Shown: positions 3,318-49,950, counted from the first letter of the stretch. The stretch is 64,000 bases of DNA from an uncultured Planctomycetales bacterium (GCA_964579435.1 CAZOGI010000010.1:23583-87582), one strand, 5' to 3'. Numbers and translations: made by a program. Notes: a model not told the origin generated them from the letters alone.

Positions 3318-5156
3318 GTGCGCCCACTCATTCCCCGGCTGATACTCTGCGCGGCGCTGGCCTTTCCGGCGCTCCTGAGCGTTCCGGCGATCACCAGCCA
3401 TATCGATGATCCCAATGCGATCGTCTACTTCAACAACGACGAAGGCTACCTCATGGACCTGGTCTGGCACTATTACTCCGGGGAAAAACGCGCCAGTTAC
3501 CAGGCGGATTTCGATTACGGGCTGCAGCTGCTCTACCTCTCCGACGCCGCGAAGCTCTTCCTGCCGGCACACATCCGATTGAGCCCCGGATCGTTCGTCC
3601 TCTTCCTGCGCTGGCTCCACCTGTGCGCCTGGATCGCCTGCATCGCACTGCTCTACCGGATCATGGCGAAGCAGTTCAACTCTGAGGCTGCGGCAGCCGC
3701 GGCCGCAGCGCTCCTTGCGGTGCGGCCGGCATTCGCCTATTTTTCGATGAACCTCAAGCCCGAACCACTCGTCTTGCTCTTTACACTCCTGGGACTCTTT
3801 TTCTGCCTGCGCATTCTTCATGAAAAACCCCTGCCGAACATGCTGCTCTCGTGCGCATTCGCGTCCCTGGCGTTCCTGACCAAGTACGCCGGGGCGCTGC
3901 TCTTGCCGGCGATAGTCTGCGCGCTGTACCTGCGCCAGCGGACGGACCGTTCGACGCCGCGCCTGCGCGTCAGCACATTGCTGCCTTCTCTTTTCGGTCT
4001 GGCGCTTGTGGGGATCATACTCTTCCTCGTCACCGGCTACGTCCGCAAATCAACCGGCACGACCTGGGCGCAGGAATACGGGATAGGCCACTGCCTTTTC
4101 GCCGAACGCGCTTTCAGCCTCCCTTTTGCCTTAGCCATACTGCTGATACTCGTTCCGCTCATCGCCGCGCTGCTCAAGCGTATCCGTCACCCGCCTATCG
4201 AGCGTCTGGTCAAAGAAGGAGAGAGGCTCGAGGCCGCTGCGCTTCCGGTCTGCGCCGCCTTTGCTGCCTTCAGCACGATTTTCGGGATTCGCTGGCTTTT
4301 CAATCCCCGGCATTTCGTAACCACCTACGCCTTCCTGGGCTCATCCGCCACATCCTCTCGCCACCTCAGCGCACTCACGGGCAACGCCTCGATCGCGGTT
4401 GAGTTCCTGAAGAATGCGCTTGAGCAGATCGTTGCCCTCGACCCCTTCCTGTGCCTGGGACTGCTGGCGTACGCTTACGCCGAATACAGAACCGTTTGCC
4501 GCCTCAACGCCGCAGCGGACCGCTTTGCGGCACACCAACGCCTCGTGCTCGTCGTTTTTCTCTTGCCCGGGCTGGCCCTGGCCTTCTCGATGCTGCGCAT
4601 GGCGCAACACCACCTGCTCGCCTACACGGCGGTCATGATCGTACTGACCCTGCAGGCGATCCCGCTCCTTGCCGGGTTCCTGCGTCCGCCGAAGCTGCGT
4701 ACGGCCCTCGCCGTCCTTTTGTGCGCGGGGATAATCCTTGATCTGTCGATCAACGGCTCGATCGTCATCGCCCAACGCAGGAGATATCTCCTGCAAAGTC
4801 ACGACGTGGCTTTCCGGGTCAAAGACTGGTTCCTGCGCACCATCCCCAGAAACGCGCGGATCGTCGCCGACCATCCGACGCGCGTCTATGTGCCCGATGG
4901 ATACACGGCTATACGCCATTTCATCGGTTATCAGGATGACCGGGTCGAGCAGCTCCGAAGCCTGGTTGAGCTTGTGAAGCCGGAGTTTATCTATTATAAT
5001 AGAGGTCCCAGCGGCGGGGAACCGATCCCGGCGCTCGAGCGGATACTTCCGGAAGCACCCTACCGGCTTATCAAGCTTTTTAAAGACGATACCGGACCCT
5101 TCCAGCGCAGGGAGGGCGACGAATTCGCGCTGTACCAAAGGACCGTCAAACAGTAA
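3318..5156 (+). CDS. polytopic membrane protein, probable GT-C type (ArnT/PMT_2-like) glycosyltransferase
   Basis: 612 aa. GTG start 2 nt after the previous stop, behind a GGAGAAG SD. About 10 or more hydrophobic helices, acidic first-loop motif NNDEGY, C-terminal soluble domain. Confidence 0.55.
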   Translation: MRPLIPRLILCAALAFPALLSVPAITSHIDDPNAIVYFNNDEGYLMDLVWHYYSGEKRASYQADFDYGLQLLYLSDAAKLFLPAHIRLSPGSFVLFLRWLHLCAWIACIALLYRIMAKQFNSEAAAAAAAALLAVRPAFAYFSMNLKPEPLVLLFTLLGLFFCLRILHEKPLPNMLLSCAFASLAFLTKYAGALLLPAIVCALYLRQRTDRSTPRLRVSTLLPSLFGLALVGIILFLVTGYVRKSTGTTWAQEYGIGHCLFAERAFSLPFALAILLILVPLIAALLKRIRHPPIERLVKEGERLEAAALPVCAAFAAFSTIFGIRWLFNPRHFVTTYAFLGSSATSSRHLSALTGNASIAVEFLKNALEQIVALDPFLCLGLLAYAYAEYRTVCRLNAAADRFAAHQRLVLVVFLLPGLALAFSMLRMAQHHLLAYTAVMIVLTLQAIPLLAGFLRPPKLRTALAVLLCAGIILDLSINGSIVIAQRRRYLLQSHDVAFRVKDWFLRTIPRNARIVADHPTRVYVPDGYTAIRHFIGYQDDRVEQLRSLVELVKPEFIYYNRGPSGGEPIPALERILPEAPYRLIKLFKDDTGPFQRREGDEFALYQRTVKQ

Positions 5157-10753: not shown

Positions 10754-11458
10754 GTGAACGCGCCGCCGCAGATCAGCGCTGTCGTCATGGCCTACAACGA
10801 GGCTGGGTCCCTGCGCAGCGTCGTCGAAGAGATCGGCAGGGAATTGCAGGGGCTCTCGCGTCCCTGCGAGATCATCATCGTAAACGACGGCTCGACCGAC
10901 GGGTCCGCGCAAGCGGCAGAGGAGCTCGCCCGGGCCAACCCGTCGGTAAGCGTGATACATCATCCGGCCAACCGCGGGTTAGGGGGGGTGTACGCGACCG
11001 GATTCGCCAAGGCGCGCGGCGACTACATCACCTTTTTCCCCGCGGACGGCCAATTCCCCGCCTCGATCATCAAACGCTTCTTGTGCCGCATGGACGATGC
11101 GGACCTGATCCTGGGATACATCCCCGAACGCAAAAGCCCCGTCCTGGGGATACTTCTGTCGGCATGCGAAAAACTGCTCTACCGCTGCCTTTTCGGCCCG
11201 GTCCCGCGGCTCCAGGGGATATTCATGGTGCGCCGCTCGATACTCCGGGAGCTGAACCTGCAGAGCGACCCCGCGCGGGGATGGGGGATCGTCATGGAGC
11301 TGATCATCAGGGCCCACCGCGCACGAATGCGGATCGCGCACGAATCAACCACCATGCGCCCCCGTTCCTGCGGCTCCTCGAAAGTGAACAACATACGGAC
11401 TGCAGCGGCTAATTTCAAACAGCTCCTGCGGCTCTTCTTCATCCTCAGACGCCGATGA
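10754..11458 (+). CDS. glycosyltransferase family 2, polyprenyl-phosphate glycosyltransferase-like (DPM1/ArnC/GtrB type)
   Basis: Track ORF 10442-11458 trimmed to GTG 10754 (TTG 10745 also possible). ISAVVMAYNEAGSL...IIIVNDGSTDGS...ANRGLGG. ATGA-coupled to the downstream GT-C-like gene. Confidence 0.75.
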   Translation: MNAPPQISAVVMAYNEAGSLRSVVEEIGRELQGLSRPCEIIIVNDGSTDGSAQAAEELARANPSVSVIHHPANRGLGGVYATGFAKARGDYITFFPADGQFPASIIKRFLCRMDDADLILGYIPERKSPVLGILLSACEKLLYRCLFGPVPRLQGIFMVRRSILRELNLQSDPARGWGIVMELIIRAHRARMRIAHESTTMRPRSCGSSKVNNIRTAAANFKQLLRLFFILRRR

Positions 11459-12975
11459 AACGCTCTAGCGGCATTATCCTGGCCGTACTGCTGGCGGCCA
11501 ACCTCGTTGCGCATTTCCTGCCCCTGGAACGCCAGGCCCTGGCGCCCGACGATTACGCGGCACTGGTCCGCGCCCGGGGAGTCTCCCTGAAACAGGCCCT
11601 GAGCAACACGCTGCGCTACCCCGACCGGCCGCTCAATTATCTGGTCCTGTATCTTCAGGCGCGCTTTACCGGCGACCATCCGCAAAGAGGGCTTGTCCTT
11701 GTATTTCTCTCCAGCACGCTTTTGCTGCTGTGCGTTTTCCTCCTCTTTGATGCGCTCACCGGCGAGCGGCGCCTGGCGCTGCTGGCAGGATTCTTTTACT
11801 GCCTGCTCCCTGTAAAGCTGGAGACCTACCATACGCCGATCTTTTTCAACACCAACCTCGCCAGCTGCCTTTTCGTGCTGAGTTTCTATTTCTTTGTGCG
11901 TTTCGCGAACGAAAACCGGCGTCTTTATCTGTCTCTGTCGCTGTTGCTCTACGGAACCGGCATCTTCTGGTACGAAATCGGATTTTTCCTCCCCATCATC
12001 GCCGCGTGCTACTACCTTTTCCAGCGCAAAGAAAAGATCGACTCCCGGGCGCTCCTGCCGTACCTGTCTCTCATGGGTATCTATGCGGCGTATCGCCTCT
12101 CGGGCGGGTTCGGTTGTGCGGACAGACCGGAGAGCACGCACCAGCTCCGGGCGGCGGCGTTTCCGCTCAATCTGCTGGAGCTGGCGCACCACCTGGGCGG
12201 CCGCTATCTCCTGCGCACCGCCGGCTACGGCCTTATGCAATTTTTCAAAGCGGATCTTGCCTGGCCGCTGGTATGGGCCGGGTGCAATGCGGCGTTACTC
12301 ACCCTGATCCAAAAGAGACACATGACACAGGACACAAGACACAAAAAAGAACCGGTCAACAACCTGTTTCTGACGTGTGTCTTCGCCTTTTTCGCGCTGC
12401 CCATCCTGCTCAACGGGGCAGGGGGGGTTGCCGGAAGACACCTGGTCCTGCCGTCGCTGGCCCTGGCACTGTGGCTTGCCCTCTGGTGCGACCGGCCTGC
12501 GCCCGCGGGCCGCCGGTTTTGGATCTGGATCAGCGCAGGGCTCCTGTGCATCAGCCAGGGGACTGCCTGGAGCCAGGTCGTCGCCTGCCGGATCAATGCG
12601 GGGATCTACCGCGCATTGAAAGCCAATGCCCCGCAGTTGCAGAAGGCCGAAACGGTCATCATCGATCTGGAGAGCTTCGCCCGCCACATCCCGTTCACCC
12701 TCGTGCAGCGCGATTTCAATGTGCTCAACACCTATTACGGCGTCCAGTGCCTGGAAGACTGGGGACTGGTCTCGATGGTGCGCCTTGCCGGCGGCTCCCG
12801 GCACCGGACGTATAGCGCGGTTTCTACGCCCGCTCCCGAAGGGGCCGATGAGCTGCGCTTCTCGATACTGCAGGACGCCGGCTACCGTACCAAGAAACGC
12901 CTGACGATAACCGTGCCGAAGAAAAACTCCTTCCTCCTCGACTATGCAGACGCACAACGATACTTTCCCCGCTAA
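11455..12975 (+). CDS. polytopic membrane protein, probable GT-C glycosyltransferase
   Basis: 506 aa. Many TM helices and a first-loop acidic motif APDDY. Carries an in-frame GACACNN heptamer repeat at 12316-12344. Confidence 0.5.
   Translation: MKRSSGIILAVLLAANLVAHFLPLERQALAPDDYAALVRARGVSLKQALSNTLRYPDRPLNYLVLYLQARFTGDHPQRGLVLVFLSSTLLLLCVFLLFDALTGERRLALLAGFFYCLLPVKLETYHTPIFFNTNLASCLFVLSFYFFVRFANENRRLYLSLSLLLYGTGIFWYEIGFFLPIIAACYYLFQRKEKIDSRALLPYLSLMGIYAAYRLSGGFGCADRPESTHQLRAAAFPLNLLELAHHLGGRYLLRTAGYGLMQFFKADLAWPLVWAGCNAALLTLIQKRHMTQDTRHKKEPVNNLFLTCVFAFFALPILLNGAGGVAGRHLVLPSLALALWLALWCDRPAPAGRRFWIWISAGLLCISQGTAWSQVVACRINAGIYRALKANAPQLQKAETVIIDLESFARHIPFTLVQRDFNVLNTYYGVQCLEDWGLVSMVRLAGGSRHRTYSAVSTPAPEGADELRFSILQDAGYRTKKRLTITVPKKNSFLLDYADAQRYFPR
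12316..12344. repeat. GACACNN heptanucleotide tandem repeat (4 units), copy inside a CDS
   Basis: AGACACATGACACAGGACACAAGACACAA matches 29274-29302 at 26 of 29 positions (23 of the 26-nt paired 12-mer core). Read in the same codon phase at both loci. Confidence 0.75.
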
Positions 12976-12991
12976 AAGCGGGAGATCGCCG

Positions 12992-14281
12992 ATGCGCATG
13001 CTGCTGGCAGCCGCCTTTGTGGGCGCCTGCGCGCTCTCTCCCGCATTCGGGCTCTGCAGCGCGCTCACCGTTGCATTTTTCCTCTTTGCGCGCTCCAGAA
13101 CCCCGAAAGAGTACCGGCTGCCCCTGACCGTTATCCTGGCAGGATCGCTTGCCGTCAGGCTGTTCCTGTTGGCCCTGCTGCAGCTGTTTTTACTCTCCCA
13201 GCAGCGGCTGGACCTCTTCGGCGACGCTGCCGACAATATCACGCACGGCATCCTGATCGCCCGGGCCCTGCCTGATCTAAACAGCCCCCTGGTCTACCAC
13301 ATCTCGCATCTCTGGTCGAATATCGCCTATAATATCCACATCAAAACCTTCTTCAACGGATTCTTCTTCCTCTTGGCCGGCCCGGATCTGCTGAGCCTCA
13401 AATACACCAACGCCCTGGCGATCGCCGCGGCCGCGTTTCTGCTCTTCCGGGTAGGCTGCGCGCTGCGCGGCCCCCGGACCGGGCTGTTCGCAGCAGCCCT
13501 GCTTTGCTTCTGGCCGACCCTGTTGATCTGGTCGCTCTCGGATCTTAAAGAGGCGCAGACGATCCTGACTATTTGCCTGCTCTTATTCTGCGGGGTGCGC
13601 ATCATCCTCAACCCTGGCGATGCGCGGATACTCGGTGCGCTCGTTCTCGCCGGAGGATACCTGGTGCTGCTGCGGACGAAACTGTTGCCGATCGTGATCG
13701 CCTATACGACGGCGGTCACGGTAACCGCTTTTTTCAAAACCATCCCTTCCGGCAAGCGCCCCTTCGCGGTTCTGATCCTGGCGCTGCTTTCGGGTGCGCT
13801 GCTCCTCTGGCAGCAAAAATACTTCTGGATCGGGTACGATCTGGTCCTCGGCGCCCAGATCGGCTTTCTCACCAGCGGCGGATGGAATTACGATTTCCTC
13901 CGTTATCTCAACGTACTCCCGCCACATTCACCCGGCTTCATGCTGCTTTTCTCTCTCTTTGCCTGGTTCCATTTCCTGAGCGAACCCTTGCCCTGGCACG
14001 GTTTTTCGCTGGGGCTGCGCACGCTCATTCCCTTTACCCTGCTCTGGTATGCGCTCTTGGCGATGGCCGTGCGCGGACTCTTTATGGTTTGGCAGCACCC
14101 GAACAAACGGTCCCGGATCGTACCTCTTTGCCTGTGGTTCTTGATCTACGGGACGATGGTCGGTATGTCCATCGCCAATATCGGCACCGCCGTGCGTTTT
14201 CGCGACGCGCTGCTGCCGGCCGTCGTCCTCCTGGCCGGCTGCGGGCTGCGCTCACACGATGACTCGACCGCCTGCCCATAA
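12992..14281 (+). CDS. polytopic membrane protein (glycan polymerase or GT-C-like; function unknown)
   Basis: Track ORF 12944-14281 trimmed to ATG 12992, which is preceded by a GGGAG SD. About 11 hydrophobic helices. No diagnostic motif recognised. Confidence 0.45.
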   Translation: MRMLLAAAFVGACALSPAFGLCSALTVAFFLFARSRTPKEYRLPLTVILAGSLAVRLFLLALLQLFLLSQQRLDLFGDAADNITHGILIARALPDLNSPLVYHISHLWSNIAYNIHIKTFFNGFFFLLAGPDLLSLKYTNALAIAAAAFLLFRVGCALRGPRTGLFAAALLCFWPTLLIWSLSDLKEAQTILTICLLLFCGVRIILNPGDARILGALVLAGGYLVLLRTKLLPIVIAYTTAVTVTAFFKTIPSGKRPFAVLILALLSGALLLWQQKYFWIGYDLVLGAQIGFLTSGGWNYDFLRYLNVLPPHSPGFMLLFSLFAWFHFLSEPLPWHGFSLGLRTLIPFTLLWYALLAMAVRGLFMVWQHPNKRSRIVPLCLWFLIYGTMVGMSIANIGTAVRFRDALLPAVVLLAGCGLRSHDDSTACP

Positions 14282-27052: not shown

Positions 27053-28027
27053 ATGAATATACTGATCACCGGCGGCGCCGGATTCATCGGTTCGCACCTG
27101 GCAGAGCGCCTCCTGCGCGCGGGACACCGGGTAACGGCATTGGACAACCTTTCGACCGGCAAGATTTCCAATATCGCGCACCTGCAGAAAGACCGATCCT
27201 TCCAGCTGGTCATCGGCACGATCCTCAACGAGATGCTCGTCGACAAGCTGGTGGAGCGTTGCGACTGCATCTTCCATCTGGCGGCGGCGGTCGGCGTTGA
27301 GCTCATCGTCAAAAAGCCGATGGAATCACTCACCACCAACATCAAGGGCAGCGAGATCGTCCTGAACATGGCCCACCGTTACCACAAAAAGATCCTCATC
27401 ACCTCCACCTCCGAGATATACGGCAAAAACACCTCCGGCCCCCTCAAGGAAGACGGCGACCGGATCCTCGGATCCCCCTTAAAGACCCGCTGGAGCTACT
27501 CGACCGCCAAGGCAGTCGATGAGATGCTGGCATACGTCTACTGGAAGGAATACGGGGTCCCCTCGGTTATCGTGCGGCTCTTTAACACCGTCGGCCCGCG
27601 GCAATCAAGCGCCTACGGCATGGTCATGCCGCGTTTTATCGAGCAGGCGCTGGCAAACAGGCCGCTGACGGTCTTCGGCTCGGGCAAGCAAACGCGCTGC
27701 TTTATCCACGTCAAGGACGTGGTGAGCGCCCTCATCAAGCTCAGCAACGAGCCGCGCGCGATAGGGGAGGTCTTCAACATCGGCTCCCAGGAAGAGATCA
27801 GCATCGAAAAACTCGCCCTCAGGATCATCGCGCTCACCAGGAGCAAATCCAAGATCCAATACCTCCCGTACGAAAAGGCCTACGAAGAGGGATTCGAGGA
27901 TATGCAGCGTCGTGTCCCCGACACCTCCAAGATAAAAAAACTGGTCGGTTTTAAGCCGACGGTTTCCCTCTCCGGGATCATCCTCGACACCCTGCGCTCT
28001 CTTAAGAAAACAGCCAAGACACGCTAG
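27053..28027 (+). CDS. NAD-dependent sugar epimerase/dehydratase (UDP-sugar 4-epimerase/decarboxylase-like SDR)
   Basis: Track ORF 27005 trimmed to ATG 27053, behind a GAGGA SD. MNILITGGAGFIGSHL and YSTAK. Confidence 0.85.
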   Translation: MNILITGGAGFIGSHLAERLLRAGHRVTALDNLSTGKISNIAHLQKDRSFQLVIGTILNEMLVDKLVERCDCIFHLAAAVGVELIVKKPMESLTTNIKGSEIVLNMAHRYHKKILITSTSEIYGKNTSGPLKEDGDRILGSPLKTRWSYSTAKAVDEMLAYVYWKEYGVPSVIVRLFNTVGPRQSSAYGMVMPRFIEQALANRPLTVFGSGKQTRCFIHVKDVVSALIKLSNEPRAIGEVFNIGSQEEISIEKLALRIIALTRSKSKIQYLPYEKAYEEGFEDMQRRVPDTSKIKKLVGFKPTVSLSGIILDTLRSLKKTAKTR

Positions 28028-28049
28028 GCTCTTGCGCCATACGCACGCT

Positions 28050-29297
28050 ATGGCCGACTCCCGTCACCGACAACCAACCGCTGCGGTGCGCGTCATGCGC
28101 ATCATCGCCCGCCTGAATATCGGCGGCCCGGCAATCCATGCGGTACTGCTCAGCAGCTGCCTGGACCGGAACCGTTTCGAAACGCTCCTGGTCACCGGGG
28201 AAAAAGAGCCCCGGGAAGGGGACATGTCCTATCTGGCCAGGCGCGCGCGGATAGAAGCGGTGGTCATCCCGCAGATGCGCCGGTCACTCAACCCCTTGCT
28301 CGACCTGATCGCCTTCTTTAAGATCTGCGGCTTGATCTCCCGTTTCCGGCCGCAGATCCTGCACACCCACACCGCCAAAGCCGGCACCCTCGGGCGCCTG
28401 GCTGCCTTAACGATCAACCTCTGGCGCGCCCTGACCTTGAGCCCCTTCATCCGCACGGTGCATACGTTCCACGGTCATGTGCTCAGCGACTATTTCAACC
28501 CGATCCAGACCGCTTTCTTCCGAACGCTTGAACGCCTTCTCGCGGCAGGGACCGACCGGCTCGTGACCGTCAGCGAAACGGTTAAACAGGATCTACTGCG
28601 CCTCAAGATCTCCTCCGGGAAACGATTGAGCGTCATCCGGCTTGGGTTCGACCTCGAGCCTTTTTTGTCGCTTGAGCCGGCCCGTTGCGCTACCAGACCG
28701 CGGGTCGGCATCGTCGGCAGGCTCGTGCCGATCAAGAACCACCGCATGTTCCTGGACGCGGTCACGCTCCTGGAAACGGACGCGCAGGCGCATTGTGACT
28801 TTGAAATCATCGGTGACGGCGAGCTGCGCGAATCGCTTCAGTCTTATGCGCAACAGAAAGGCATCGCAGCGCACCTTGAGTTCCGGGGCTGGCAACAGGA
28901 CCTGCCGGCCGTCTACCGCAACCTCGACATCGTCGCGCTGACCTCACTCAACGAAGGCACGCCCGTCTCGATCATCGAAGCGCTCGCCTCAGGGCGAGCG
29001 GTCGTCGCAACCCAGGTCGGAGGGGTCAGCGATCTGCTCGGAGCGGCCCGCAGCGGTTTCGAGGATAACGCTGGTTTCAAAGTATGCCAGCGGGGAATAC
29101 TCATCCGCTCCGGCGATGCGCGCGGCCTCTTTGAGGCGCTGCGGTTTCTCTGCGCGCATCCGCAGCTGTGGCCGGCGCTTACCGAAGCAGGCAGGATATT
29201 CGCCCGGGAGAATTTCGGCAAGGAGCGGCTGGTGGGGGAGATAGAGCGACTGTACGGGGAGTTATTGAAACATAGACACATGACACCTGACACATGA
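28050..29297 (+). CDS. glycosyltransferase family 4 (GT-B fold)
   Basis: Track ORF 28032 trimmed to ATG 28050. RIIARLNIGGPAIH and EGTPVSIIEALASGRAVVAT. The last 8 codons and the stop lie inside the GACACNN repeat. Confidence 0.75.
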   Translation: MADSRHRQPTAAVRVMRIIARLNIGGPAIHAVLLSSCLDRNRFETLLVTGEKEPREGDMSYLARRARIEAVVIPQMRRSLNPLLDLIAFFKICGLISRFRPQILHTHTAKAGTLGRLAALTINLWRALTLSPFIRTVHTFHGHVLSDYFNPIQTAFFRTLERLLAAGTDRLVTVSETVKQDLLRLKISSGKRLSVIRLGFDLEPFLSLEPARCATRPRVGIVGRLVPIKNHRMFLDAVTLLETDAQAHCDFEIIGDGELRESLQSYAQQKGIAAHLEFRGWQQDLPAVYRNLDIVALTSLNEGTPVSIIEALASGRAVVATQVGGVSDLLGAARSGFEDNAGFKVCQRGILIRSGDARGLFEALRFLCAHPQLWPALTEAGRIFARENFGKERLVGEIERLYGELLKHRHMTPDT

Positions 29298-29334
29298 CAC
29301 AAGGTGGAGCACACGAACACAGGAACACAAGGAA
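29274..29334. repeat. GACACNN heptanucleotide tandem repeat
   Basis: GACACATGACAC CT GACACATGACAC is a perfect 12-mer repeated at a 14-nt period, i.e. 4 GACACNN units. It is followed by degenerate 7-nt units (GGTGGAG CACACGA ACACAGG AACACAA). Confidence 0.8.
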
Positions 29335-29390
29335 ATCCCGTGCCCTGATGCTCTTGTGCACCGGTGCGCCTGGCTCTTATAACTGGTGTC

Positions 29391-29419
29391 TTGTGCCTGG
29401 TCACCCGATTTGTTATAAT
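29391..29419 (+). promoter_or_regulatory. sigma70-like promoter TTGTGC-17 nt-TATAAT, leaderless-type
   Basis: -35 at 29391-29396 and -10 at 29414-29419. Only 8 nt separate the -10 from ATG 29428, and there is no SD. Confidence 0.5.
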
Positions 29420-29427
29420 ATAGACTT

Positions 29428-31233
29428 ATGACTCTGCCGATCGCACCCATACTCAGCTACCTGCCGGTATTCCTGCTGGCCTTCGCCCTGAGTTTTTTCG
29501 CCACCCCGATCGTGCGGCGCATCGCTCTGCACCAGGGCCTCATCGCCTACCCGCGCTCCGACCGCTGGCACAAGCAACCGACCGCCCTCATGGGAGGCAC
29601 CAGCATCTTCCTGGCAACGCTGGGGACGATCCTTTTTTTCCGGCTCTTTTCGCCCCCGATGACCGGGCTGCTCCTGGGAGGGACATTCCTCTTCCTCGCC
29701 GGCCTTGCCGATGATAAAATCCACCTGACGCCCTATACCAAGCTTTTCTTCCAGATCGCCGCCGGGTGCATCGCGGTCCTCTTCGGGACGACCCTGCCGC
29801 TCCCGCTGCACTCGATGCTCACCGTGCCGCTGACCCTGCTGTGGATCGTCGGGGTGACGAATTCTTTCAACCTCCTCGACAATATCGACGGCCTCGCGGC
29901 GGGGATCGCGACCATCTCCTCGCTCATGCTCTTCTTCACTTCACTGGTGCTCTCGCAGAACCCCTTCAGCATATTCGCGCTGATCCTGGCTGCTGCCGCG
30001 CTGGGATTCCTGCCCTATAATTTCAATCCCGCCCGGATCTTCATGGGAGACTCCGGCAGCATGTTCCTGGGATTCTCCCTGGCGGTCATCTCGATCTCGG
30101 GGAGCGGACGGCACCTCTCGAGCCTGTCCCTGACCATGCTCATCCCGGTCCTCATCCTTTCGGTGCCGATCTTCGATACTCTTTTCGTGATGATCGTGCG
30201 CACGCTCAACGGCCGCCGGATATTCGACGGCGGCAAAGACCATACCTCGCACCGTCTGGTCACCCTGGGGCTCTCCCAGCGCAAAACCGTCCTTCTGCTC
30301 TACGCCGTCAGCGTCGCCTTCGGCCTGATCGCAATACTCTATACCGCCCGCTTCAACCTCTTCGTCATCTCGGCGGTCGCCTTTCTTTCGGCGACGGTCC
30401 TGCTGTTCTTCGGCATCTTCCTCTTCGACGTAACCTCTTTCCCCGACGAAAAATCGGTCCGCCGCAAACAGCGGATGATGGCCGATGCCACGATCCTCAA
30501 CAACATCCTCATGCACAAACGCCGCTTCGTCGAGGTGCTCCTGGACCTGTCCTTTATCTTTATCGCCTACTACGCGTCGTATTTCCTGCGCTTTGAGGGC
30601 GTGGCCCTGCGGACCAACCTCGTGCTGATGCGGGAATCGCTCCTCTGGGTCATCCTCATCAAACTCTCGGTTTTCTTCATCTTCGGCATGTACCGGGGGA
30701 TGTGGCGTTATATCAGCGTCTCCGACCTGCTGACGATCTTCAAGGTCGTTTCCATCGGCTCGGTCTCCTCGATTATCTTCGTGACTTTCCTCTACCGCTT
30801 CCAGGATTATTCGCGCAAGGTCTTCTTCATCGACTGGATACTGCTGCTCTTTTTGACCTTGGGCTCGCGCATCATCATCCGGGTCATGGGCGAATTCTTC
30901 AGCGGATCGAAAAAAGGCAACACCAAGGTACTGATCTTCGGGGCAGGGGACACCGGCGAGATGCTCGTGCGCGAGATAAAACGAAACGCCGCGCTCTGCT
31001 ACAGCCCCGTCGGTTTCATCGATGACGACCCCACCAAGATCGGCACCAAGATACAGGGGGTCGCGGTTTTGGGCAACCGCGAACGCCTCGACCAGATCGT
31101 CCGGGAACGGGGGATACAGCTGCTCCTGGTCGCGGCCCCGGACATCGGCACCGAAGAATTCCAGGAACTGAGCGCCTACTGCAAGGAAAAAGGTATCGCG
31201 CTCAAGAAGATCAAGGGGCTTCTCGACGACTAA
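29428..31233 (+). CDS. WecA/MraY-family polyprenyl-phosphate sugar-1-phosphate transferase fused to a CapD/WbpM-N-terminal-like membrane + Rossmann module
   Basis: 601 aa. NSFNLLDNIDGLAAG and FMGDSGSMFLGF signatures. C-terminal KVLIFGAGDTGEMLVREI...VGFIDDDPTKIGTKIQGVAVLG. Confidence 0.8.
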   Translation: MTLPIAPILSYLPVFLLAFALSFFATPIVRRIALHQGLIAYPRSDRWHKQPTALMGGTSIFLATLGTILFFRLFSPPMTGLLLGGTFLFLAGLADDKIHLTPYTKLFFQIAAGCIAVLFGTTLPLPLHSMLTVPLTLLWIVGVTNSFNLLDNIDGLAAGIATISSLMLFFTSLVLSQNPFSIFALILAAAALGFLPYNFNPARIFMGDSGSMFLGFSLAVISISGSGRHLSSLSLTMLIPVLILSVPIFDTLFVMIVRTLNGRRIFDGGKDHTSHRLVTLGLSQRKTVLLLYAVSVAFGLIAILYTARFNLFVISAVAFLSATVLLFFGIFLFDVTSFPDEKSVRRKQRMMADATILNNILMHKRRFVEVLLDLSFIFIAYYASYFLRFEGVALRTNLVLMRESLLWVILIKLSVFFIFGMYRGMWRYISVSDLLTIFKVVSIGSVSSIIFVTFLYRFQDYSRKVFFIDWILLLFLTLGSRIIIRVMGEFFSGSKKGNTKVLIFGAGDTGEMLVREIKRNAALCYSPVGFIDDDPTKIGTKIQGVAVLGNRERLDQIVRERGIQLLLVAAPDIGTEEFQELSAYCKEKGIALKKIKGLLDD

Positions 31234-32482: not shown

Positions 32483-34717
32483 ATGAACCGGTTTGCCGCA
32501 GGCATTACCTTCAGCGCCGCCGCAGGCATCATTGCCCAAGCGCTCCTTTTCCGGGAACTCTCGGTTGCCGTCTATACAAACGAGCTGCTCCTGGGGGCGC
32601 TTTTGTGCCAGTGGCTCATCATTGCCGCCCTGGGCGCAGCCGGTGCGATTTTCTTTCTGCGCCGCGCTACCCCTGCAAATTGGTTTTTTCTTTTCCTTGA
32701 GATCGCCTTCGCCCTTACCCTGGCTGCCGCCGTTACCTTCATTCGCTCCTTCAGGATTGTCTTTGCGATCGCTCCGGGAAAAGAACCGGGCCTCGGCATC
32801 GCGCTCCTCGTCTGCGGCATGAGCTGTCTGATCCCGGCCCTTATTCACGGAGCGCTGTTCCCTCTCTGGGCGCGCGTGCTGCCCGGGGAAAAAACAGTCG
32901 CACGGGCGTACGGCTGGGAAGCCCTCGGAGCGGCAGGCGGGGGAGTACTCTGCAGCTTCTGGCTCTTCCCGCACTTTTTTACGTACACAATACTCTTTGC
33001 GCTTTTTTCGGGTTGTCTGTGCATCGGCATAAGCATGCTGCGCAGGCCGGCGAAAACACGTCTGGCTTGGTGCGCCTTGGTTCTCGGAACCGCCCTGATC
33101 GTACGGCACCCGCTCGGCGCAGCCCTGGACCGGATCGAAAAAACAACCGCAGCCCGGCAGTGGGCGCATGCCGGCAGGCTCCTGGATTCCCGGCATTCGC
33201 GTTACGGACACCTCGCCCTTATTGCACGCAACGGACAACATACATATTATTACAACGGGACGCCGTTGCTGAGTTTGCCCGGATCGGACATCGACTTCGA
33301 AGAAACCGTCTCCCATCTGGCGCTTCTGGCGCATCCGTCTCCGGCGCAGGTACTGCTCCTGGGCCAAGGAAGCATCCGGCTCATCCCGCAGATACTCAAA
33401 CACCCCGTCGAAAAACTCGACTACGCCGAGCTTGACGACACACTCTTCTTTCTCATGGAACACAACGACCCGCAGAGCTCCCGCGCCTCCCTCAGCGACC
33501 CGCGCGTCAACCTGCGCTACCGCGACGGCCGCGCCTTCCTGACGGAGACGAACGCACTCTATGACGTCATCCTTATCATGCCTTCGAGTCCCCGCAGCCT
33601 TTTTACCAACCGCTTTTTGACGCGCGAATTTTACCTTCTGGCGCGCCAACACCTGAAACCGGGCGGCATCGTTGCCGCCTGGCAGGACGGATCAGACCAT
33701 TACCTGAGCCCGCAGAGAAATCGTATCCTCTCCAGCGTCTATGCCGCTTTCTCTTCTGCGTATCCCCGAACCCTGCTGCTGCCCGGGACGACCACCGTTC
33801 TTATCGGAACCGAAGACGAAGCCGCGTTTACAAAGACAGGGGATTGGGCCGAAGAACGCTACAGTGAACGCGGGCTGAAGCTATCGACGACGAACGAAAT
33901 GCACCTGCGCGATCGTTTCGCGCTGGGCCTGCCGCCTGCGAACTGGATGCTGCGGGAACTCCTCCCGCAAACACCCCGCAACAGCGACCGCCGTCCTTTT
34001 GGCGTCTTTGCCGGGATGGCCTTCTGGCAGAAACAGAATAGCCCCTCAACGGCATGGATTCTGGAGTCTGTCTCAGGCATCAGGACAAAACACTTGCTTT
34101 TCTTTTTACTGTCGGCAATGGCGTTTTGGGGAACAGCGCTTCGGCGCAGAAGAGACCCGGTCTCCCGCATTACAGAAATCGCGGTCTTTTCAACCGGATT
34201 CTGGGGGATGTGCTCTTCGATGCTGATCCTGTGTTCCTATCAAACAGTTCAGGGATACATCTTCGAGCGCTACGGGCTGATCGCGGGACTGTACATGGCA
34301 GGCCTGGGCATCTCAAGCTTCTGGGCGGCGAGAAGCGGAAGAAGAACAACGCGGCAGTTTCTCCTGCGCACCGAGATCGGCATGGTGCTGGCCTCATTCG
34401 GGCTCCTCCTGCTGCCGTCGATACGGGTACCCCATGCAACTGCGGTTTTTTGCCTGGCCTCTTTTGCGGCGGGCCTTCTCTGCGGGGCGGATTTCGCTTT
34501 TTCCAGCATCCTTGCATCAAATGATTCCGGCAAAGAAAACGCCCGGTTATACGTCGCGGATTTGGCCGGAGGATGCCTGGCGGCTTTGAGCGCGGGGGTC
34601 GTCCTGCTGCCGGTCATCGGGATGGCCTCGACGGCAGCGCTTTTGGCTGCGCTCAAAGCCTGCAGCGCCGCCTTCGCCTGGCGTTTAGGGCGCTTCCTGC
34701 CGCTGCCTTCCGATTAA
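32483..34717 (+). CDS. polytopic membrane protein with embedded spermidine-synthase-like (class I MTase fold) domain
   Basis: 744 aa. VLLLGQGSIRLI, ELDD, RDGRAFL and YDVILI motifs lie between two TM bundles. Confidence 0.65.
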   Translation: MNRFAAGITFSAAAGIIAQALLFRELSVAVYTNELLLGALLCQWLIIAALGAAGAIFFLRRATPANWFFLFLEIAFALTLAAAVTFIRSFRIVFAIAPGKEPGLGIALLVCGMSCLIPALIHGALFPLWARVLPGEKTVARAYGWEALGAAGGGVLCSFWLFPHFFTYTILFALFSGCLCIGISMLRRPAKTRLAWCALVLGTALIVRHPLGAALDRIEKTTAARQWAHAGRLLDSRHSRYGHLALIARNGQHTYYYNGTPLLSLPGSDIDFEETVSHLALLAHPSPAQVLLLGQGSIRLIPQILKHPVEKLDYAELDDTLFFLMEHNDPQSSRASLSDPRVNLRYRDGRAFLTETNALYDVILIMPSSPRSLFTNRFLTREFYLLARQHLKPGGIVAAWQDGSDHYLSPQRNRILSSVYAAFSSAYPRTLLLPGTTTVLIGTEDEAAFTKTGDWAEERYSERGLKLSTTNEMHLRDRFALGLPPANWMLRELLPQTPRNSDRRPFGVFAGMAFWQKQNSPSTAWILESVSGIRTKHLLFFLLSAMAFWGTALRRRRDPVSRITEIAVFSTGFWGMCSSMLILCSYQTVQGYIFERYGLIAGLYMAGLGISSFWAARSGRRTTRQFLLRTEIGMVLASFGLLLLPSIRVPHATAVFCLASFAAGLLCGADFAFSSILASNDSGKENARLYVADLAGGCLAALSAGVVLLPVIGMASTAALLAALKACSAAFAWRLGRFLPLPSD

Positions 34718-37456
34718 CGCAGAGAGCTCCGGGGCAAGGGGAGAACGCATCTGCCGCAATCTCTGCAGCTGCTCCTGCGCCGAAGCGAAATCCTTACGTT
34801 CCAAAAAAAGCCTCCCGAGGTGAAAAACTGCCAGGGGAGAGGGGCTGGGCAGCGACAAAGCCCGGACGAACGCCTCCTGAGCCTCATCGAGCCTGCCGCG
34901 TGCCATTTCAATGACACCGACGCTCACCCATGCCTCGCAGGATTTGGGGTCTCGCGCAAGGAAATCCTGAAGCACAGCCAGGGCATCATCGAAACGCCGC
35001 TGCGTTGCCAACAGAGCGCTCAGGTTCAACGCTGCCCGCCGGTGTCCCGGCTCAAGCCGGAGGGTTAAGCGGTATTCATCGATCGCCGGCGCCGTGATCT
35101 TCTGGCTTTCGTACGTGACTGCAAGATTGTAATGCGCCCGGGCGTTGGAAGGATCCAGGTCCAGCGCGCGCTTCAGGGCATTCGCCGCTTTGACGGGATC
35201 GCGCCGTTTTCCGCTCAAGATCCCCATCCGCAGGAATGCCTCGGCTGAACCCGGGTCGATCTCGGCCGCCGCCTGGTACAGGCGCAACGCTTTCTCCTGC
35301 ATCCCCAGCTCCTCCAAAACGCCGCCGAAGGCAAGATACGGTCCCGCACCCGGGGTTTGGCGCCGCGCCTTTTCAAAAGCCTGCTCCTGCGCCGTAAACG
35401 TCGCCTGTTCCTCCCGCAAGCCGATTAGTTGCCGCAGAAGGCGTTTGTCCTGAGGCCGGCGGGAAGCCTCTGACTGCAGAAGCTCCAGCGCCTGCGCGAA
35501 GAGTCCTTCCTGGCGGTAAAGCTTCAGGAGCAAGCGCAGGGCCGGGACAAAATCAGGCGAACGCTGCACGCACTCCCGGGCATACCGGATTGCTTGCGGG
35601 GAATCATTCTTCTGCTCAAAAAGCTGAGCCAGAGTGTAGAGCGCCAGGTAATCCCCGGGGTTCAAAGAGAGAGCGGTGCGCAGCGATTCTTCGGCGCGTT
35701 CCATCATACCCTTGCGCAGATACAACGCTCCCAGATCGGAGTAAACCCGGGATTCCTGCGGTTCTCGGGAAATAAGCTTCAGATACGTATCGATCGCTCC
35801 GGTAATATTGCCTGCCGCCACATAAGATTCGGCAAGGTTAAAATACGCCTCTTGGTATCGCGGTTCGACGGAAATCGCGGTCCGGAATGAGGCGATTGCC
35901 CGCTCATACCGCTCGCGCGAACGGTACAGTACGCCCAGGTTATTATGCACCTCCGGCAGCCGGGGATTGACCGCAAGGGCCTGGCGCAGGAACGCCTCGC
36001 CTTTATCCGTTTCGCCCCGCTCAAAATAGAGCACGCCCAGATTGGCGATTCCCCTGACATACGAAGGGTCAAGGCGGAATGATTCGCGAAACGCCCGCTC
36101 GGCGCGCTGGAAATCATGCGCATTCTTGTAGGCCATCCCCAGGTTGAGCTGCGCGCGCGGCTTGCGGGGAGATTTGGAGACCACATCCTCCCACAGTCCG
36201 GTATCGGTAAGCCAGACATTTCCGTAACGCAGCGTCCCCGCGCCGAAGGCGAAAACAACCAGAGCCAGAAACAAAACCCATGCACGCGTTGCCGCCTGAG
36301 CGCCGAGTTCGGCCCGCTGCTGCGGCATGATGCGCCCGAAAAAACGGTACAGGGCCAGCACCCCCAGCACGATCCAGCCCACGGAGGGCAGATACAGCCG
36401 GTGCAGGAAGACCGTATCTTTAAGCGGCACAAAACTGGAATCGGGAGCGCTGATCAGAAAATAGAACAGCGCCCAGAAAACCAGGGACGGATGCGACCGG
36501 AAGCGGCGTCGCAGCCACACCAGAAGCGAAAACAGCGCCGCGCAGGCCACAAAGGTCAGCGGCTCGAATATCGACGCCGCATAACGCCAGTCATAATCGA
36601 GGTTGAGCCCAACGGGAAAAATAAGGATAAAAAGGTAATACCAGAAAACCGAACACTGCGTCAGCAAATACGTCCAGGCGCTCACAAACGGTATGCCAAA
36701 ACCTGCAGCCGCTTGTTCCCCGTACGCGCCGCTGCGGTAACCTCCCCCGATCAGATATGCGCCGAAGAGCAGGGTCGCCGCAAGGCACAGGTAGAACCAG
36801 CGTCTCCTTGAAAGTGCGCGCAACGAGCGCCCGGAAATAAAACAGTAATCGAAGAGCGCAATTACCAGGGGGGCGGTATTTCCGGTCTCCTTGGAGCCGA
36901 TCGCGCACAAAACCGCAACGACGGTTGCCGAAAGCAGCGGCACGCGGAAACGCCGAAACCGTTCGGCGAGGATGAATAAAACCAGAGACGCCAGATAAAA
37001 GAACGAACACAACAGGACTGACCGGCTCGAGACATAGACGACTGACTCCACGCGCACCGGATGGACCACGAAAATAAGCGCGCTCAGGAACGCGGCACGA
37101 ATCCCCGGCGCACGCCATCTCTCGGGCACCGACGGGAGCGAAAACGTCAGGGAGAGGAAAACGAAGAGCAAAACCCCGTTGAGCGCATGCAGCAGCGTAT
37201 TGAAGAGATGGTATCCGAAAGGCTCGAGCCCGCCGAGGCGATAATTGATCGCGAAACTCAATTGGTACAGCGGACGCTCGCTGAAACGCAGGAAGGGATT
37301 GCTCAGGTTCCGGATAAACCGGTTCTCGGTAACCGTCCCCTGGTCGTCGAACTGAAAAGGGCTGCTCAGCGTGTGGGCATACAGCAGGAAGGCGCTTGCC
37401 ACCAGCAGCACCGCCAGGAATACGACCGGAACGGTTTGTTTCGAGCTCATAGTCAT
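34685..37456 (-). CDS. TPR-repeat GT-C glycosyltransferase-like protein (TMTC/DUF1736-type)
   Basis: Track ORF runs to 37795; trimmed to ATG 37456 (MTMSSKQ...). TM1 is followed by FQFDD, then about 10 TM helices, then 10 or more TPR units. Confidence 0.7.
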   Translation of the reverse strand: MTMSSKQTVPVVFLAVLLVASAFLLYAHTLSSPFQFDDQGTVTENRFIRNLSNPFLRFSERPLYQLSFAINYRLGGLEPFGYHLFNTLLHALNGVLLFVFLSLTFSLPSVPERWRAPGIRAAFLSALIFVVHPVRVESVVYVSSRSVLLCSFFYLASLVLFILAERFRRFRVPLLSATVVAVLCAIGSKETGNTAPLVIALFDYCFISGRSLRALSRRRWFYLCLAATLLFGAYLIGGGYRSGAYGEQAAAGFGIPFVSAWTYLLTQCSVFWYYLFILIFPVGLNLDYDWRYAASIFEPLTFVACAALFSLLVWLRRRFRSHPSLVFWALFYFLISAPDSSFVPLKDTVFLHRLYLPSVGWIVLGVLALYRFFGRIMPQQRAELGAQAATRAWVLFLALVVFAFGAGTLRYGNVWLTDTGLWEDVVSKSPRKPRAQLNLGMAYKNAHDFQRAERAFRESFRLDPSYVRGIANLGVLYFERGETDKGEAFLRQALAVNPRLPEVHNNLGVLYRSRERYERAIASFRTAISVEPRYQEAYFNLAESYVAAGNITGAIDTYLKLISREPQESRVYSDLGALYLRKGMMERAEESLRTALSLNPGDYLALYTLAQLFEQKNDSPQAIRYARECVQRSPDFVPALRLLLKLYRQEGLFAQALELLQSEASRRPQDKRLLRQLIGLREEQATFTAQEQAFEKARRQTPGAGPYLAFGGVLEELGMQEKALRLYQAAAEIDPGSAEAFLRMGILSGKRRDPVKAANALKRALDLDPSNARAHYNLAVTYESQKITAPAIDEYRLTLRLEPGHRRAALNLSALLATQRRFDDALAVLQDFLARDPKSCEAWVSVGVIEMARGRLDEAQEAFVRALSLPSPSPLAVFHLGRLFLERKDFASAQEQLQRLRQMRSPLAPELSALIGRQRQEAP

Positions 37457-37475
37457 CGGGCCGTTTTGCGGCCGT

Positions 37476-37814
37476 TCATGTCTTCTGGCCCTCTGCCTCC
37501 AGCAGCACGAGTCTTTGGGTAAGCAGTTTGATCTTCTGTTCGAGACAGGAGATAGCGATCGAAAAATGGAGCAGCATCGCCGTGATGACGAAAAACGCTG
37601 CAAGAAAGAGCAGGGAGGGAGGGTAGTAGACGCCGACGAGCGCCGAGACCCGCTCCAGCAACGCGCGCCAAAGGCACAGGGAGAGGAGCATCCCGCAGCC
37701 CAGAAGCCACAGCAGGGCATACTTCTCCTTAAGACGCCCCGTGCGGATGCTGTAGAAGACAAAACCGACCAGCGCCAGGATCCCGCATACCGCAAACACT
37801 TGTATCCGGCTCAT
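37476..37814 (-). CDS. DUF2304-family small membrane protein
   Basis: 112 aa. LKEKYALLWLL...YYPPSLLFL core plus a C-terminal coiled-coil tail. Start overlaps the stop of the upstream GT2. Confidence 0.7.
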   Translation of the reverse strand: MSRIQVFAVCGILALVGFVFYSIRTGRLKEKYALLWLLGCGMLLSLCLWRALLERVSALVGVYYPPSLLFLAAFFVITAMLLHFSIAISCLEQKIKLLTQRLVLLEAEGQKT

Positions 37815-38548
37815 TCCTCGCCTCCCGGGTTATCCGTTTTTCCTGCCGACACCAGCAACAGCGCCAAAGAGACTTTGGCCATGTAATACAACGCCCGCAA
37901 AGGGGTAATGCTCGAGCGGCCGCCGCAACGTCCCCGCATCGCCACCGGCACCTCAAGCACCCGGAAACCGCTCTTGAGCGCCAAAACCGTCGATTCCGGC
38001 TCCGGATAATCATCCGCATACTCCCGGGAAAAAAGCTCGACCACCTCACGCCTCATGAGACGCATACCCGAAGTCGGATCGGTTATCCAAACTCCGGTCC
38101 GCAGCCAGATCAGGCAGGACAGGAACCGGATACCGATCCTGCGCAGGAACGTGGAAGGATAGCCGCCTGCGGCACGGAAACGCGAGGCAATGACCATATC
38201 CGCACCCGCCTGCGAAGCGCGGCGGCACAGCAGCGCCGCCATCGCCGGGAGCGCCGCGGCGGGATGCTGTCCGTCGCCGTCAACCTGAACGAGGGCGTCA
38301 AATCCTTGGCGCAGGCAATAACGGAAACCCGTCTGCATGATCGCGCCGATCCCCATGTTGAAAGGCATCCGTAACACCGTAGCCCCGGCGGCACGGGCGG
38401 ACTCATCCGTCGCGTCCCCAGAAGCATCGTCGATCACCAGGACCTCGGCAGCCACGCCCGAACCCTTGACCTCGGCGATGACACCCCGAATGCTCTCTTC
38501 CTCGTTGTATGCGGGGACCACCGCCAGAACCCGCAATTGCTCACTCAT
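37811..38548 (-). CDS. glycosyltransferase family 2, polyprenyl-phosphate glycosyltransferase-like
   Basis: Track ORF trimmed to ATG 38548 (MSEQLRVLAVVPAYNEEESI). VLVIDDASGD and VDGDGQHP. Confidence 0.8.
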   Translation of the reverse strand: MSEQLRVLAVVPAYNEEESIRGVIAEVKGSGVAAEVLVIDDASGDATDESARAAGATVLRMPFNMGIGAIMQTGFRYCLRQGFDALVQVDGDGQHPAAALPAMAALLCRRASQAGADMVIASRFRAAGGYPSTFLRRIGIRFLSCLIWLRTGVWITDPTSGMRLMRREVVELFSREYADDYPEPESTVLALKSGFRVLEVPVAMRGRCGGRSSITPLRALYYMAKVSLALLLVSAGKTDNPGGEE

Positions 38549-40769: not shown

Positions 40770-40773
40770 TGGG

Positions 40774-41757
40774 TTACCTCTCCTGGCGCGCCTGAAAAAG
40801 CGCCAGCGCTTTCAGGACGACGCAGGTGGTATGCAAATAGAACCCCTCATCGACGCGCCTGCCGTAGAGGGCGCGCAAGCGCTCGTAGTCCCCGAAGGAG
40901 CCGTTCGGATTCTGGCAGGAGAGAAGGAACTTTACTCCCTGAGGGATAATCGTTGCTGTGCGCATTTTGAGCAGTTCCATGCACAGTAAAAGCTCGGCCA
41001 CCAGGTCGGGATCCCGCTTTCCGATATATGCCGCAGCCAGATCGCTCAGGACCGAATCCAGGTATTGCGCATCGCTTTCGCTCAGCAGCTCCGACAGGGA
41101 GTCGTCACCGAAGCCGGCGAGCGCCAGGACCTCATGCGTCAGCGCGTACACCTCCAGCGTATCGAGGGCAGAAGCATCGGGACGCGCCTGGATAATGCCC
41201 GCGCGGTATGCCGCACGCAGGTCAAAGGGCGGCTCGATGCCGAAAAAACGGTAATAGACGGCGAAAGCCAGCTGCTGGTTAACGCCCCGGGAAGAAAGGT
41301 GCGCGTTCAGGCGGGGGAGGATGGCGCGGATCTCTTGGCGGTATGCGGTTGTCTCGAAGCCGGATTTCTCCAGGAGGTAACAAAAACGCAGGTACGAGGT
41401 CGCATCCTCGGCAAACTGCTCCGCCGGGATCGCTCCCATATCGTGAAACGAAGCCTCCTCGGTGATGCGGGCGATCTTGCGCAGGCGCAGCTCGAGGGAC
41501 GGCCGCAGCTGCGGCGGCAGACGGGGCGCGATCGCCGTATACGCTTCAAAAAGCTCGACGGTCTTTTTCTTCCCCTTGATCCCGAAACGGCGCAATTGCC
41601 CCGGGTTAAACTCGATCGTATCCAGCCAGGGCGCAGCCTTGATCATGCTGCGCAGCAGGAGTTCCCGGAGCAAAGGCTCCGAGGAAGCGCCGCAACCGGG
41701 CACCGCGACAGAGAGGCCGACAACCAAAGCAAGGGGGAGGAAGGTACGGTTCGTCAT
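40774..41757 (-). CDS. secreted protein or lipoprotein with a prenyltransferase/terpene-cyclase-like alpha/alpha-toroid repeat
   Basis: 327 aa. Signal peptide LALVVGLSVAVPGCG with a possible lipobox. C-terminal LLSCQNPNGSFGDY. Confidence 0.45.
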   Translation of the reverse strand: MTNRTFLPLALVVGLSVAVPGCGASSEPLLRELLLRSMIKAAPWLDTIEFNPGQLRRFGIKGKKKTVELFEAYTAIAPRLPPQLRPSLELRLRKIARITEEASFHDMGAIPAEQFAEDATSYLRFCYLLEKSGFETTAYRQEIRAILPRLNAHLSSRGVNQQLAFAVYYRFFGIEPPFDLRAAYRAGIIQARPDASALDTLEVYALTHEVLALAGFGDDSLSELLSESDAQYLDSVLSDLAAAYIGKRDPDLVAELLLCMELLKMRTATIIPQGVKFLLSCQNPNGSFGDYERLRALYGRRVDEGFYLHTTCVVLKALALFQARQER

Positions 41758-47752: not shown

Positions 47753-47799
47753 GGCGTGACCATCTAGAAACAAGAGACCTGGGTCAGGAAACATGCACA

Positions 47800-49938: not shown

Positions 49939-49950
49939 AATAGTTAAGCC

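Follow-up and report, generated by a model that had tools for sequence, protein, structure and literature searches.

A GACACNN heptanucleotide repeat read in frame within a variable loop of a GT-C glycosyltransferase gene from an uncultured Planctomycetales bacterium

Results

The gene that hosts the repeat

The stretch of DNA analysed here, referred to as the window, comprises 64,000 nucleotides from an uncultured Planctomycetales bacterium (GCA_964579435.1 CAZOGI010000010.1:23583-87582) and carries a glycan-synthesis cluster. On the plus strand, positions 11455-12975 hold a single intact gene for a 506-aa membrane glycosyltransferase of the GT-C fold with a PMT_2 domain, and the same 506-aa product is on record at NCBI. 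A homologue search with this protein returned 59 proteins (best identity 44%), which are 493-625 aa long and match 82-99% of the query as one protein, except for three entries cut by contig ends. None of the 59 is split at the repeat described below, and alignments of 27 and 57 sequences were colinear with the query across it. Residues invariant in the 27 aligned sequences stand on both sides of the repeat: H20, F21, P23, E25, R26, D32 and on to G249 before it, and P316, R328, L332, G369, W372 and on to G429 behind it. Among these, E25, R26 and D32, together with D33 (present in at least 90% of the sequences), follow helix 1 in the manner of the acidic motif that GT-C enzymes carry in their first external loop.

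An AlphaFold2 model built from the homologue alignment (mean pLDDT 83, pTM 0.85) consists of helices up to about residue 390 followed by a beta-rich domain, as expected for the soluble C-terminal domain of a GT-C enzyme. Foldseek matched the model to the GT-C structures STT3, PglB, AglB, ArnT, PMT and DPY19 with probability 1.0, in agreement with the PMT_2 match. Kyte-Doolittle hydropathy was too crude for counting helices, and the model was used in its place.

The best matches of the window's proteins were found in Omnitrophota genomes assembled from metagenomes, which would place the window in or near that lineage, and the nearest relative of the host gene in metagenome contigs was 39% identical. 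Neither the ORF at 11455 nor the two ORFs downstream of it gave a record in exact look-ups against the contig index. An apparent disruption of the gene in another assembly, read from an absent self-match, proved to be a clustering artefact, the cluster representative being an unrelated 55-aa peptide.

A period-7 array and its copies in the window

Positions 12316-12344 of the plus strand (site 1) consist of an A followed by four heptamers, GACACAT, GACACAG, GACACAA and GACACAA. Tandem Repeats Finder reported period 7, 4.1 copies and 86% matches, and the longest perfect stretch is two units long (GACACAAGACACAA). The array is read in the frame of the host gene as RHMTQDTRHKKE and encodes R288-K297 (RHMTQDTRHK). 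On its 3' side follows an A/G-rich tail, AAAAGAA (12345-12351), which is probably a decayed repeat unit; it is common to site 3 (see below), and a similar tail accompanies an array in a ProRS-like gene of Omnitrophota. The array stands out from its gene in composition. Over 36 nt from 12316 the GC content is 39%, compared to 60% for the gene, which places this segment in the lowest 1% of 36-nt windows. Its codons are rare as well: AGA, which makes up 5% of Arg codons, and ACA, with 9% of Thr codons, are each used twice. Low GC content and rare codons support that the array segment arose at the nucleotide level.

A second array (site 2; 29274-29302, plus strand) has the same make-up, an A followed by GACACAT, GACACCT, GACACAT and GACACAA, and was likewise called as a period-7 array by Tandem Repeats Finder. 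It covers the last 7 codons and the TGA (29295-29297) of a GT4 gene at 28032-29297. The intergenic sequence behind it (29303-29405), upstream of the gene at 29428, contains decayed CA-rich units (GGTGGAG, CACACGA, ACACAGG, AACACAA) and, after these, a degenerate inverted partner with the segments CTCTTGTG and GGTGTCTTGTGCC, the best minus-strand match in the comparison with site 1. Within the same interval, Tandem Repeats Finder called a period-8 array at 29306-29334, and a partial inverted copy of the array lies at approximately 29383-29400. A Logan assembly from SRR12133403 was 100% identical over 27239-29452, and the sequence of site 2 is thus reproducible.

A third, decayed copy (site 3; CATGACACCAGAGACAAGAAAACAAAAAAGAAAG) is located at 49878-49911 on the plus strand, 40-73 nt upstream of the ATG of a 2657-aa ORF (49951-57924). 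It is identical to site 1 at 27 of 32 positions, a score reached by 0 of 2000 local composition-matched shuffles, and the two sites have in common a tail outside the repeat (ACAAAAAAGAA). All three sites lie on the coding strand of the one glycan-synthesis cluster within 64 kb. Their positions relative to gene starts differ: site 1 is intragenic and 600 nt from the next start, and about 126 nt separate site 2 from the downstream ATG of the gene at 29428.

The resemblance of sites 1 and 2 exceeds chance. A 21-nt degenerate pattern had four matches in the window, all at these two sites and each site matching in two overlapping registers, and none in 100 dinucleotide shuffles. None of the eight units of the two sites departs from the GACAC core, variation being confined to positions 6 and 7. 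Period 7 also characterizes four of the nine best-scoring tandem arrays of the window. Two of these four, of GTGAGGA/GTTAGGA type at 49703-49739 and of CTCCCAA type at 49762-49808 (plus-strand coordinates), are mutually inverted and fold into a long hairpin (z = -3.5); they belong to the same repeat class as GACACNN with a different unit. Near site 1, an 8-nt segment at 12376-12383 (TGTGTCTT) is an inverted match to AAGACACA (12336-12343). It lies 32 nt downstream of site 1, falls on codons of the next transmembrane helix (LTCVF) and would pair in an 8-bp stem, with a fold no better than shuffles (z-score -0.32). The match is possibly due to chance, for which our own rough estimate is about 0.04.

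Reading phase and stop codons

Direct reading of both frames confirmed the observation in the earlier note that the same repeat occurs at sites 1 and 2 with an identical codon phase. Site 2, translated as part of ORF 28032-29297, gives RHMTPDT and then the TGA at 29295-29297. Sites 2 and 1 differ in their final 12-mer by a single base, a T at 29295 against an A at 12337, and this one change does make or remove the TGA, as had been noted: unit 3 is GACACAT at site 2 and GACACAA at site 1.

The coding properties of the unit put this difference into context. All three sense frames of a (GACACAA)n run are free of stop codons and yield the same cyclic peptide, DTRHKTQ. Stops arise only from units ending in T (TGA) or TA (TAG), and the variants ending in AA, AG and CC are free of stops. 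At site 2, units 1, 2 and 3 all end in T and give a TGA in each of the three frames, so that any ORF entering the array would terminate there. At site 1, only unit 1 ends in T, which leaves two of the three phases open. The shared phase is therefore weak evidence, and the claim that identical phase at two unrelated genes is unlikely to be chance does not hold, since the probability is 1/3, or 1/2 when the gene at site 1 is required to remain open. The T/A change that removes the stop is a difference between the unit variants GACACAT and GACACAA and no relic of a gene boundary.

The GT4 gene agrees with this reading of site 2. Its conserved sequence ends at RLYGELL, and beyond a conserved anchor near the LY motif, 12 residues from the C-terminus, its tail measures 12 aa compared to an orthologue median of about 6 aa; only 11 of 120 orthologues have a tail as long. 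As the tail exceeds the median by about 6 aa, RHMTPDT is incidental read-through into an array located immediately behind the gene.

The loop that holds the array

In the host protein, the array falls between two conserved positions, G259 and P316. This interval is 58 aa long in the query. Across the 57 aligned sequences its median length is 57 aa (range 54-62), and 42 of them have exactly 57 aa. Consequently, there is no net insertion: the array fills a pre-existing loop and lengthens it by no more than one residue. The model has the helix 269-291 ending with residues 288-291, followed by a coil of residues 292-302 with pLDDT of about 54 before the helix 303-318. The homologues' loops at the position of the array are unrelated in sequence and rich in K/R (2-6 K/R).

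The C-terminal domain of GT-C enzymes is periplasmic. Counted back from this domain in the model, the helix at 350-390 runs outward and that at 333-345 inward, the conserved GGVxGRHLxLPS loop lies outside, and the helix at 303-318 runs outward. Together with the positive-inside rule, this count places the array-bearing loop on the predicted cytoplasmic side.

The proposal that the repeat inserted in frame into a cytoplasmic loop and is tolerated there thus stands in part. The array does lie in a low-confidence, K/R-rich loop that is predicted to be cytoplasmic, but a net change of +1 aa does not correspond to an insertion. The earlier note had also described a counter-scenario in which the two halves never occur as separate genes and the segment is conserved at the protein level. 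Its first half agrees with our data, as no split homologue was found; its second half does not, the segment not being conserved as protein and the loop sequence varying.

GACACNN arrays in other genomes

We scanned one genome per bacterial and archaeal species (GTDB species representatives) for four consecutive GACACNN units. At least 120 loci carried such an array, with about one expected by chance according to our own estimate. The phyla among the matches listed include Acidobacteriota, Planctomycetota, Chloroflexota, Verrucomicrobiota, Gemmatimonadota, Omnitrophota and Bacteroidota, besides Streptomyces and others. Among these listed matches most arrays are pure, built from GACACCT, GACACCC, GACACAA or GACACGA, and many adjoin an inverted partner array or arrays of other heptamers. 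The other arrays in the listed loci, those without the GACAC core, are dominated by period 7 (84) and period 14 (51), compared to 4 for period 6 and 18 for period 8. A sense ORF of 100 aa or more encloses only 23% of the listed arrays, compared to 70% of random positions in the same loci, and a long ORF starts within 40 nt downstream of 34% of the listed arrays and of 28% of controls.

Two Omnitrophota genomes among the matches listed carry a mixed array of AA, AG and AT units in frame inside conserved genes. In a MiaB-like methylthiotransferase, KTHDTRHKTH aligns with RFEKPDGETI of the solved MiaB structure 7MJV, with a gain of 2 aa. In a prolyl-tRNA synthetase-like (ProRS-like) gene, DTGHKTQDT lies in a variable linker and adds 4 aa compared to 5ZNJ and 2J3L. 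In the GT-C, MiaB-like and ProRS-like genes alike, the array occupies a hydrophilic variable linker whose length is barely altered.

Discussion

A simple repeat of the long heptamer type

Site 1 is a heptanucleotide simple repeat of the LSSR5-11 class, being built of tandem units and longer than expected by chance. According to the account of Mrazek et al. (2007) given in PMC4679880, long simple sequence repeats with units of 5-11 nt most commonly have heptamer units, polymerase slippage has been proposed as their origin, and they occur in free-living bacteria with larger genomes. As far as that account describes the class (Mrazek, Guo and Shah 2007, via PMC4679880), the GACACNN arrays resemble it in their head-to-tail 7-nt units and, across the listed arrays, in their mostly intergenic position; the dominance of period 7 among the other arrays of the listed loci likewise fits that account. 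Site 1 differs from it in being short (four units), imperfect and coding, although its unit is not a multiple of three.

Other members of this class, the cyanobacterial STRR and the TAACTGA heptamers found in Beggiatoaceae, Cyanobacteria and Bacteroidetes (MacGregor 2015, PMC4679880), are similarly scattered 7-nt tandem units. Some of these lie within ORFs, and stop codons in the unit restrict their location (PMC4679880). The window differs from these cases in its GACACNN unit and in a host that is not a cyanobacterium. Moreover, the TAACTGA arrays of 5'-UTRs sit a few nucleotides upstream of gene starts, in contrast to sites 1-3.

The Rickettsia palindromic elements offer a different parallel, as they too are repeated DNA that is translated as a tolerated surface or loop segment of conserved proteins. 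Those elements are palindromic, measure 100-150 bp and make the protein longer upon insertion. Site 1, in contrast, is 28 nt long and tandem and leaves the length of the loop unchanged, and its host protein is not longer than the homologues by the length of an element.

Origin of the array

We consider it likely that site 1 is a slippage-type heptamer repeat tolerated in a variable loop on the presumably cytoplasmic side of the membrane. The array itself is most likely a by-product of replication slippage and presumably neutral. It would most likely have arisen at the nucleotide level through replication slippage or misaligned templated repair, and the variants retained would be those that kept the frame and the approximate length of the loop. 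The peptide encoded by GACACAA units (D-T-R-H-K-T-Q) is hydrophilic and positively charged and would suit a poorly conserved, K/R-rich loop. That an array is found inside a gene at all follows from a unit that is unusually compatible with coding. At 29274, the array simply lies beyond the conserved end of the GT4 protein, where the ORF enters it and stops.

Three aspects of the data sit less comfortably with slippage. First, the array is 28 nt long at a net gain of +1 aa, whereas adding units in frame would lengthen the gene by multiples of 21 nt (7 aa). The small gain therefore requires the assumption of either a compensating deletion or a templated conversion, neither of which was observed. 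Second, the invariant GACAC core could reflect selection on the core. Third, the tail in common between sites 1 and 3 (ACAAAAAAGAA) hints that these are copies of one element and not products of independent slippage. The placement of all three copies on the coding strand of a single cluster also weighs against slippage. Because of these puzzles of loop length, intact core and common tail, three rival explanations are kept alive at low probability.

One rival is that GACAC arrays, with their 7-nt spacing, are bound by a regulator, either in the mRNA or in the non-template strand of the DNA, and thereby coordinate expression of the glycan cluster. Candidates for the putative binder would include single-strand binding proteins of the cold-shock or S1 type and factors for anti-termination or pausing, and site 1 would sit in a tolerant loop that lets it serve as coding sequence and signal at once. 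We judge this account, with both of these additions, to be unlikely. It would accommodate the three sense-strand copies in one 64-kb polysaccharide cluster, the core that is intact in eight of eight units while positions 6 and 7 vary, and the location of sites 2 and 3 upstream of the genes at 29428 and 49951. There is also a precedent in the TAACTGA heptamers, which have been proposed, although not proven, to be sites of a post-transcriptional regulator, with CspB binding one heptamer per protein (PMC4679880). However, the copies show no fixed placement with respect to starts or promoters, and the arrays among the matches listed, mostly pure repeats, differ widely in their spacers, as expected from slippage.

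Searches for a regulatory context did not support a cis-signal. Rfam had no match in the whole window at gathering thresholds, and permissive Rfam scans of sites 1 and 2 returned only a chance mir-542 match. The RNA folds of sites 1 (z -0.32) and 2 (z -1.09) were no better than those of shuffles. Scans for promoters and terminators were negative for sites 1 and 2, and beside site 3 they gave a single weak sigma-70-like site. No NusG- or RfaH-like gene was detected in the 37 ORFs scanned, a set that ends before 46083 and thus before the 2657-aa ORF. A literature search on the heptamer words themselves yielded primer noise only. The GACAC word is not enriched in the window (63 observed compared to 60 expected under a Markov model). 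The strand asymmetry between GACAC (63) and GTGTC (7) was considered as a signal and discarded, as lower-order composition accounts for it (expected 60 and 10).

A small dispersed element of approximately 30-35 nt (CATGACACNNGACACAAGACACAAAAAAGAA) that replaced loop codons, either by in-frame insertion or through gene conversion, in the manner of Rickettsia palindromic elements, would explain why sites 1 and 3 match at 27 of 32 nt with the non-repeat tail included. The 8-nt inverted match 32 nt downstream of site 1 and the atypical local GC content and codon usage could be read in the same way. We nevertheless regard such an element as quite improbable: the loop is no longer than that of the homologues (+1 aa), target-site duplications and terminal inverted repeats are lacking, and the flanks outside the array are dissimilar between the sites. 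A slippage-type repeat, and not a single mobile sequence, is indicated instead by the 7-nt periodicity and by comparable arrays at 120 or more loci of unrelated genomes.

Very improbable, in our estimation, is the idea that GACAC arrays are the substrate or product of a dedicated and widespread system that overwrites short stretches of DNA without changing their length. Such a system would be either a protein that recognizes GACAC cores spaced by 7 nt on single-stranded nucleic acid or a template-directed activity that adds repeats or carries out repair, and we hold this specification to be just as improbable as the system itself. If true, it would explain the replacement of linkers at a cost of +1 to +4 aa, the invariant core and the dominance of heptamers across phyla.

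The surface-polysaccharide setting also brings phase variation to mind. Under this reading, gain or loss of one 7-nt unit at site 1 would shift the reading frame of the GT-C gene and so switch a modification of the surface glycan on or off. Site 1 resembles contingency loci such as the tetranucleotides of Haemophilus lic and lgtC and the 7-bp repeats of the hmw promoter in that its unit is not divisible by three and lies in a glycosyltransferase gene of a surface-polysaccharide cluster. Repeats of this kind are a classical genomic signature of contingency loci (PMC4679880). The tract differs from them, however, in being too short and imperfect, with four units and a longest perfect run of two, compared to the long and near-perfect tracts of switches. 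Similar in-frame GACACNN arrays also occur in the housekeeping genes for ProRS and MiaB, where switching would harm. Both points weaken the proposal, and we give it very little credence. In addition, the independent assembly of site 2 contained no length variant, and a metagenome scan with exact flanks of site 1 and a gap of 8-38 nt found none at that site. The tract is far below the length of tracts that switch at useful rates.

Finally, the earlier note suggested that ORF 11455-12975 may be an evolutionary or assembly-level fusion of two genes at the repeat. All that speaks for this is the likeness of site 1 to site 2, whose sequence closes the GT4 gene. On the present data the fusion is rejected and retains next to no probability, because full-length single-chain homologues cross the junction colinearly, invariant residues stand on both sides of it (H20 to G249 and P316 to G429 in 27 sequences), the GT-C model is coherent and NCBI records the 506-aa product, all of which agree on a single gene.

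Implications

The locus mainly carries a caution for the reading of genomes. The same repeat in the same phase at the end of one gene and in the interior of another mimics a fossil gene boundary, which here comes down to unit variants that do or do not contain TGA. The GACACNN arrays, present at no fewer than 120 loci of species-representative genomes and able to form a DTRHKTQ-like linker when read in frame within conserved proteins, provide a concrete small case of how, in uncultivated bacteria, variable protein loops can be remodelled by simple repeats. Selection at the nucleotide level, if it acted on the arrays, would make them a new cis-signal that overlaps coding sequence.

Heptamer arrays in other genomes

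A scan of species-representative genomes placed the (GACACNN)x4 array at 120 loci or more (L001-L120), distributed over many phyla, and an inverted partner array was frequent beside it among the matches listed. Among the other tandem repeats of these listed loci, periods of 7 and 14 overwhelmingly prevail, accounting for 135 of the 289 arrays that lack a GACAC core. In two Omnitrophota members, GACAC(AA/AG/AT) arrays run in frame through genes. One lies in a MiaB-like gene (locus L076, reverse complement, 1389-1414), where it encodes KTHDTRHKTH in a variable linker only 2 aa longer than in a solved homologue. The other, in a ProRS-like gene (locus L070, 199-224), encodes DTGHKTQDT, likewise within a variable linker and with only 4 aa more than the solved homologues.

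Within the window, the pentamer core occurs about as often as a lower-order Markov model predicts, with GACAC found 63 times on the plus strand (60 expected) and GTGTC 7 times (10 expected). This strand is C-rich throughout (C 0.33, G 0.28), and the excess persists across 34685-41757, where the genes lie on the minus strand. Such a pattern points to a skew related to replication and not to an effect of coding.

The array-bearing glycosyltransferase gene and its database record

The membrane glycosyltransferase ORF 11455-12975 shares 32 nt (12944-12975) with the following ORF 12944-14281, which encodes a multi-helix protein of 445 aa without a Pfam match. Translation of this second gene may in reality begin further downstream. 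A lookup of its exact product in the contig index returned no record. The protein collection does contain the 506-aa protein encoded by ORF 11455-12975 (P0180, an NCBI record from a 92,612-bp contig), where it is grouped under an unrelated 55-aa representative (P0181) whose genomic context differs (L145). This grouping is a database clustering artefact, and it explains why the self-hit was missing from the homologue search.

Intergenic repeats and promoter-like motifs

Between gene 47749-49704 and the 2657-aa ORF 49951-57924, a pair of heptamer arrays (49703-49808) combines GTGAGGA/GTTAGGA/GTTTGGA x5 with CTCCCAA/CTCCTAA/CTCCCTA x6.7 in mutually inverted orientation. Folding predicts a long imperfect hairpin (z = -3.5), which may be a terminator or insulator-like structure made of simple repeats. 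GTGACT-16 nt-TATAAT (within 49911-49953) ends 12 nt upstream of the ATG at 49951, and an extended -10 consensus, TGTTATAAT (within 29411-29430), ends 8 nt upstream of the ATG at 29428. The mRNAs of both genes may be leaderless or almost leaderless.

Content of the gene cluster

The cluster encodes three PMT_2/GT-C-type membrane glycosyltransferases (3318-5156, 11455-12975 and 38541-40769), of which one carries a fusion to TPR repeats, together with three successive B12-binding radical SAM genes (41869-46093), many GT2/GT4 genes, sugar-nucleotide enzymes and a Wzy_C-domain protein of the O-antigen ligase/polymerase family. It is a glycan-modification locus of unusually large size.
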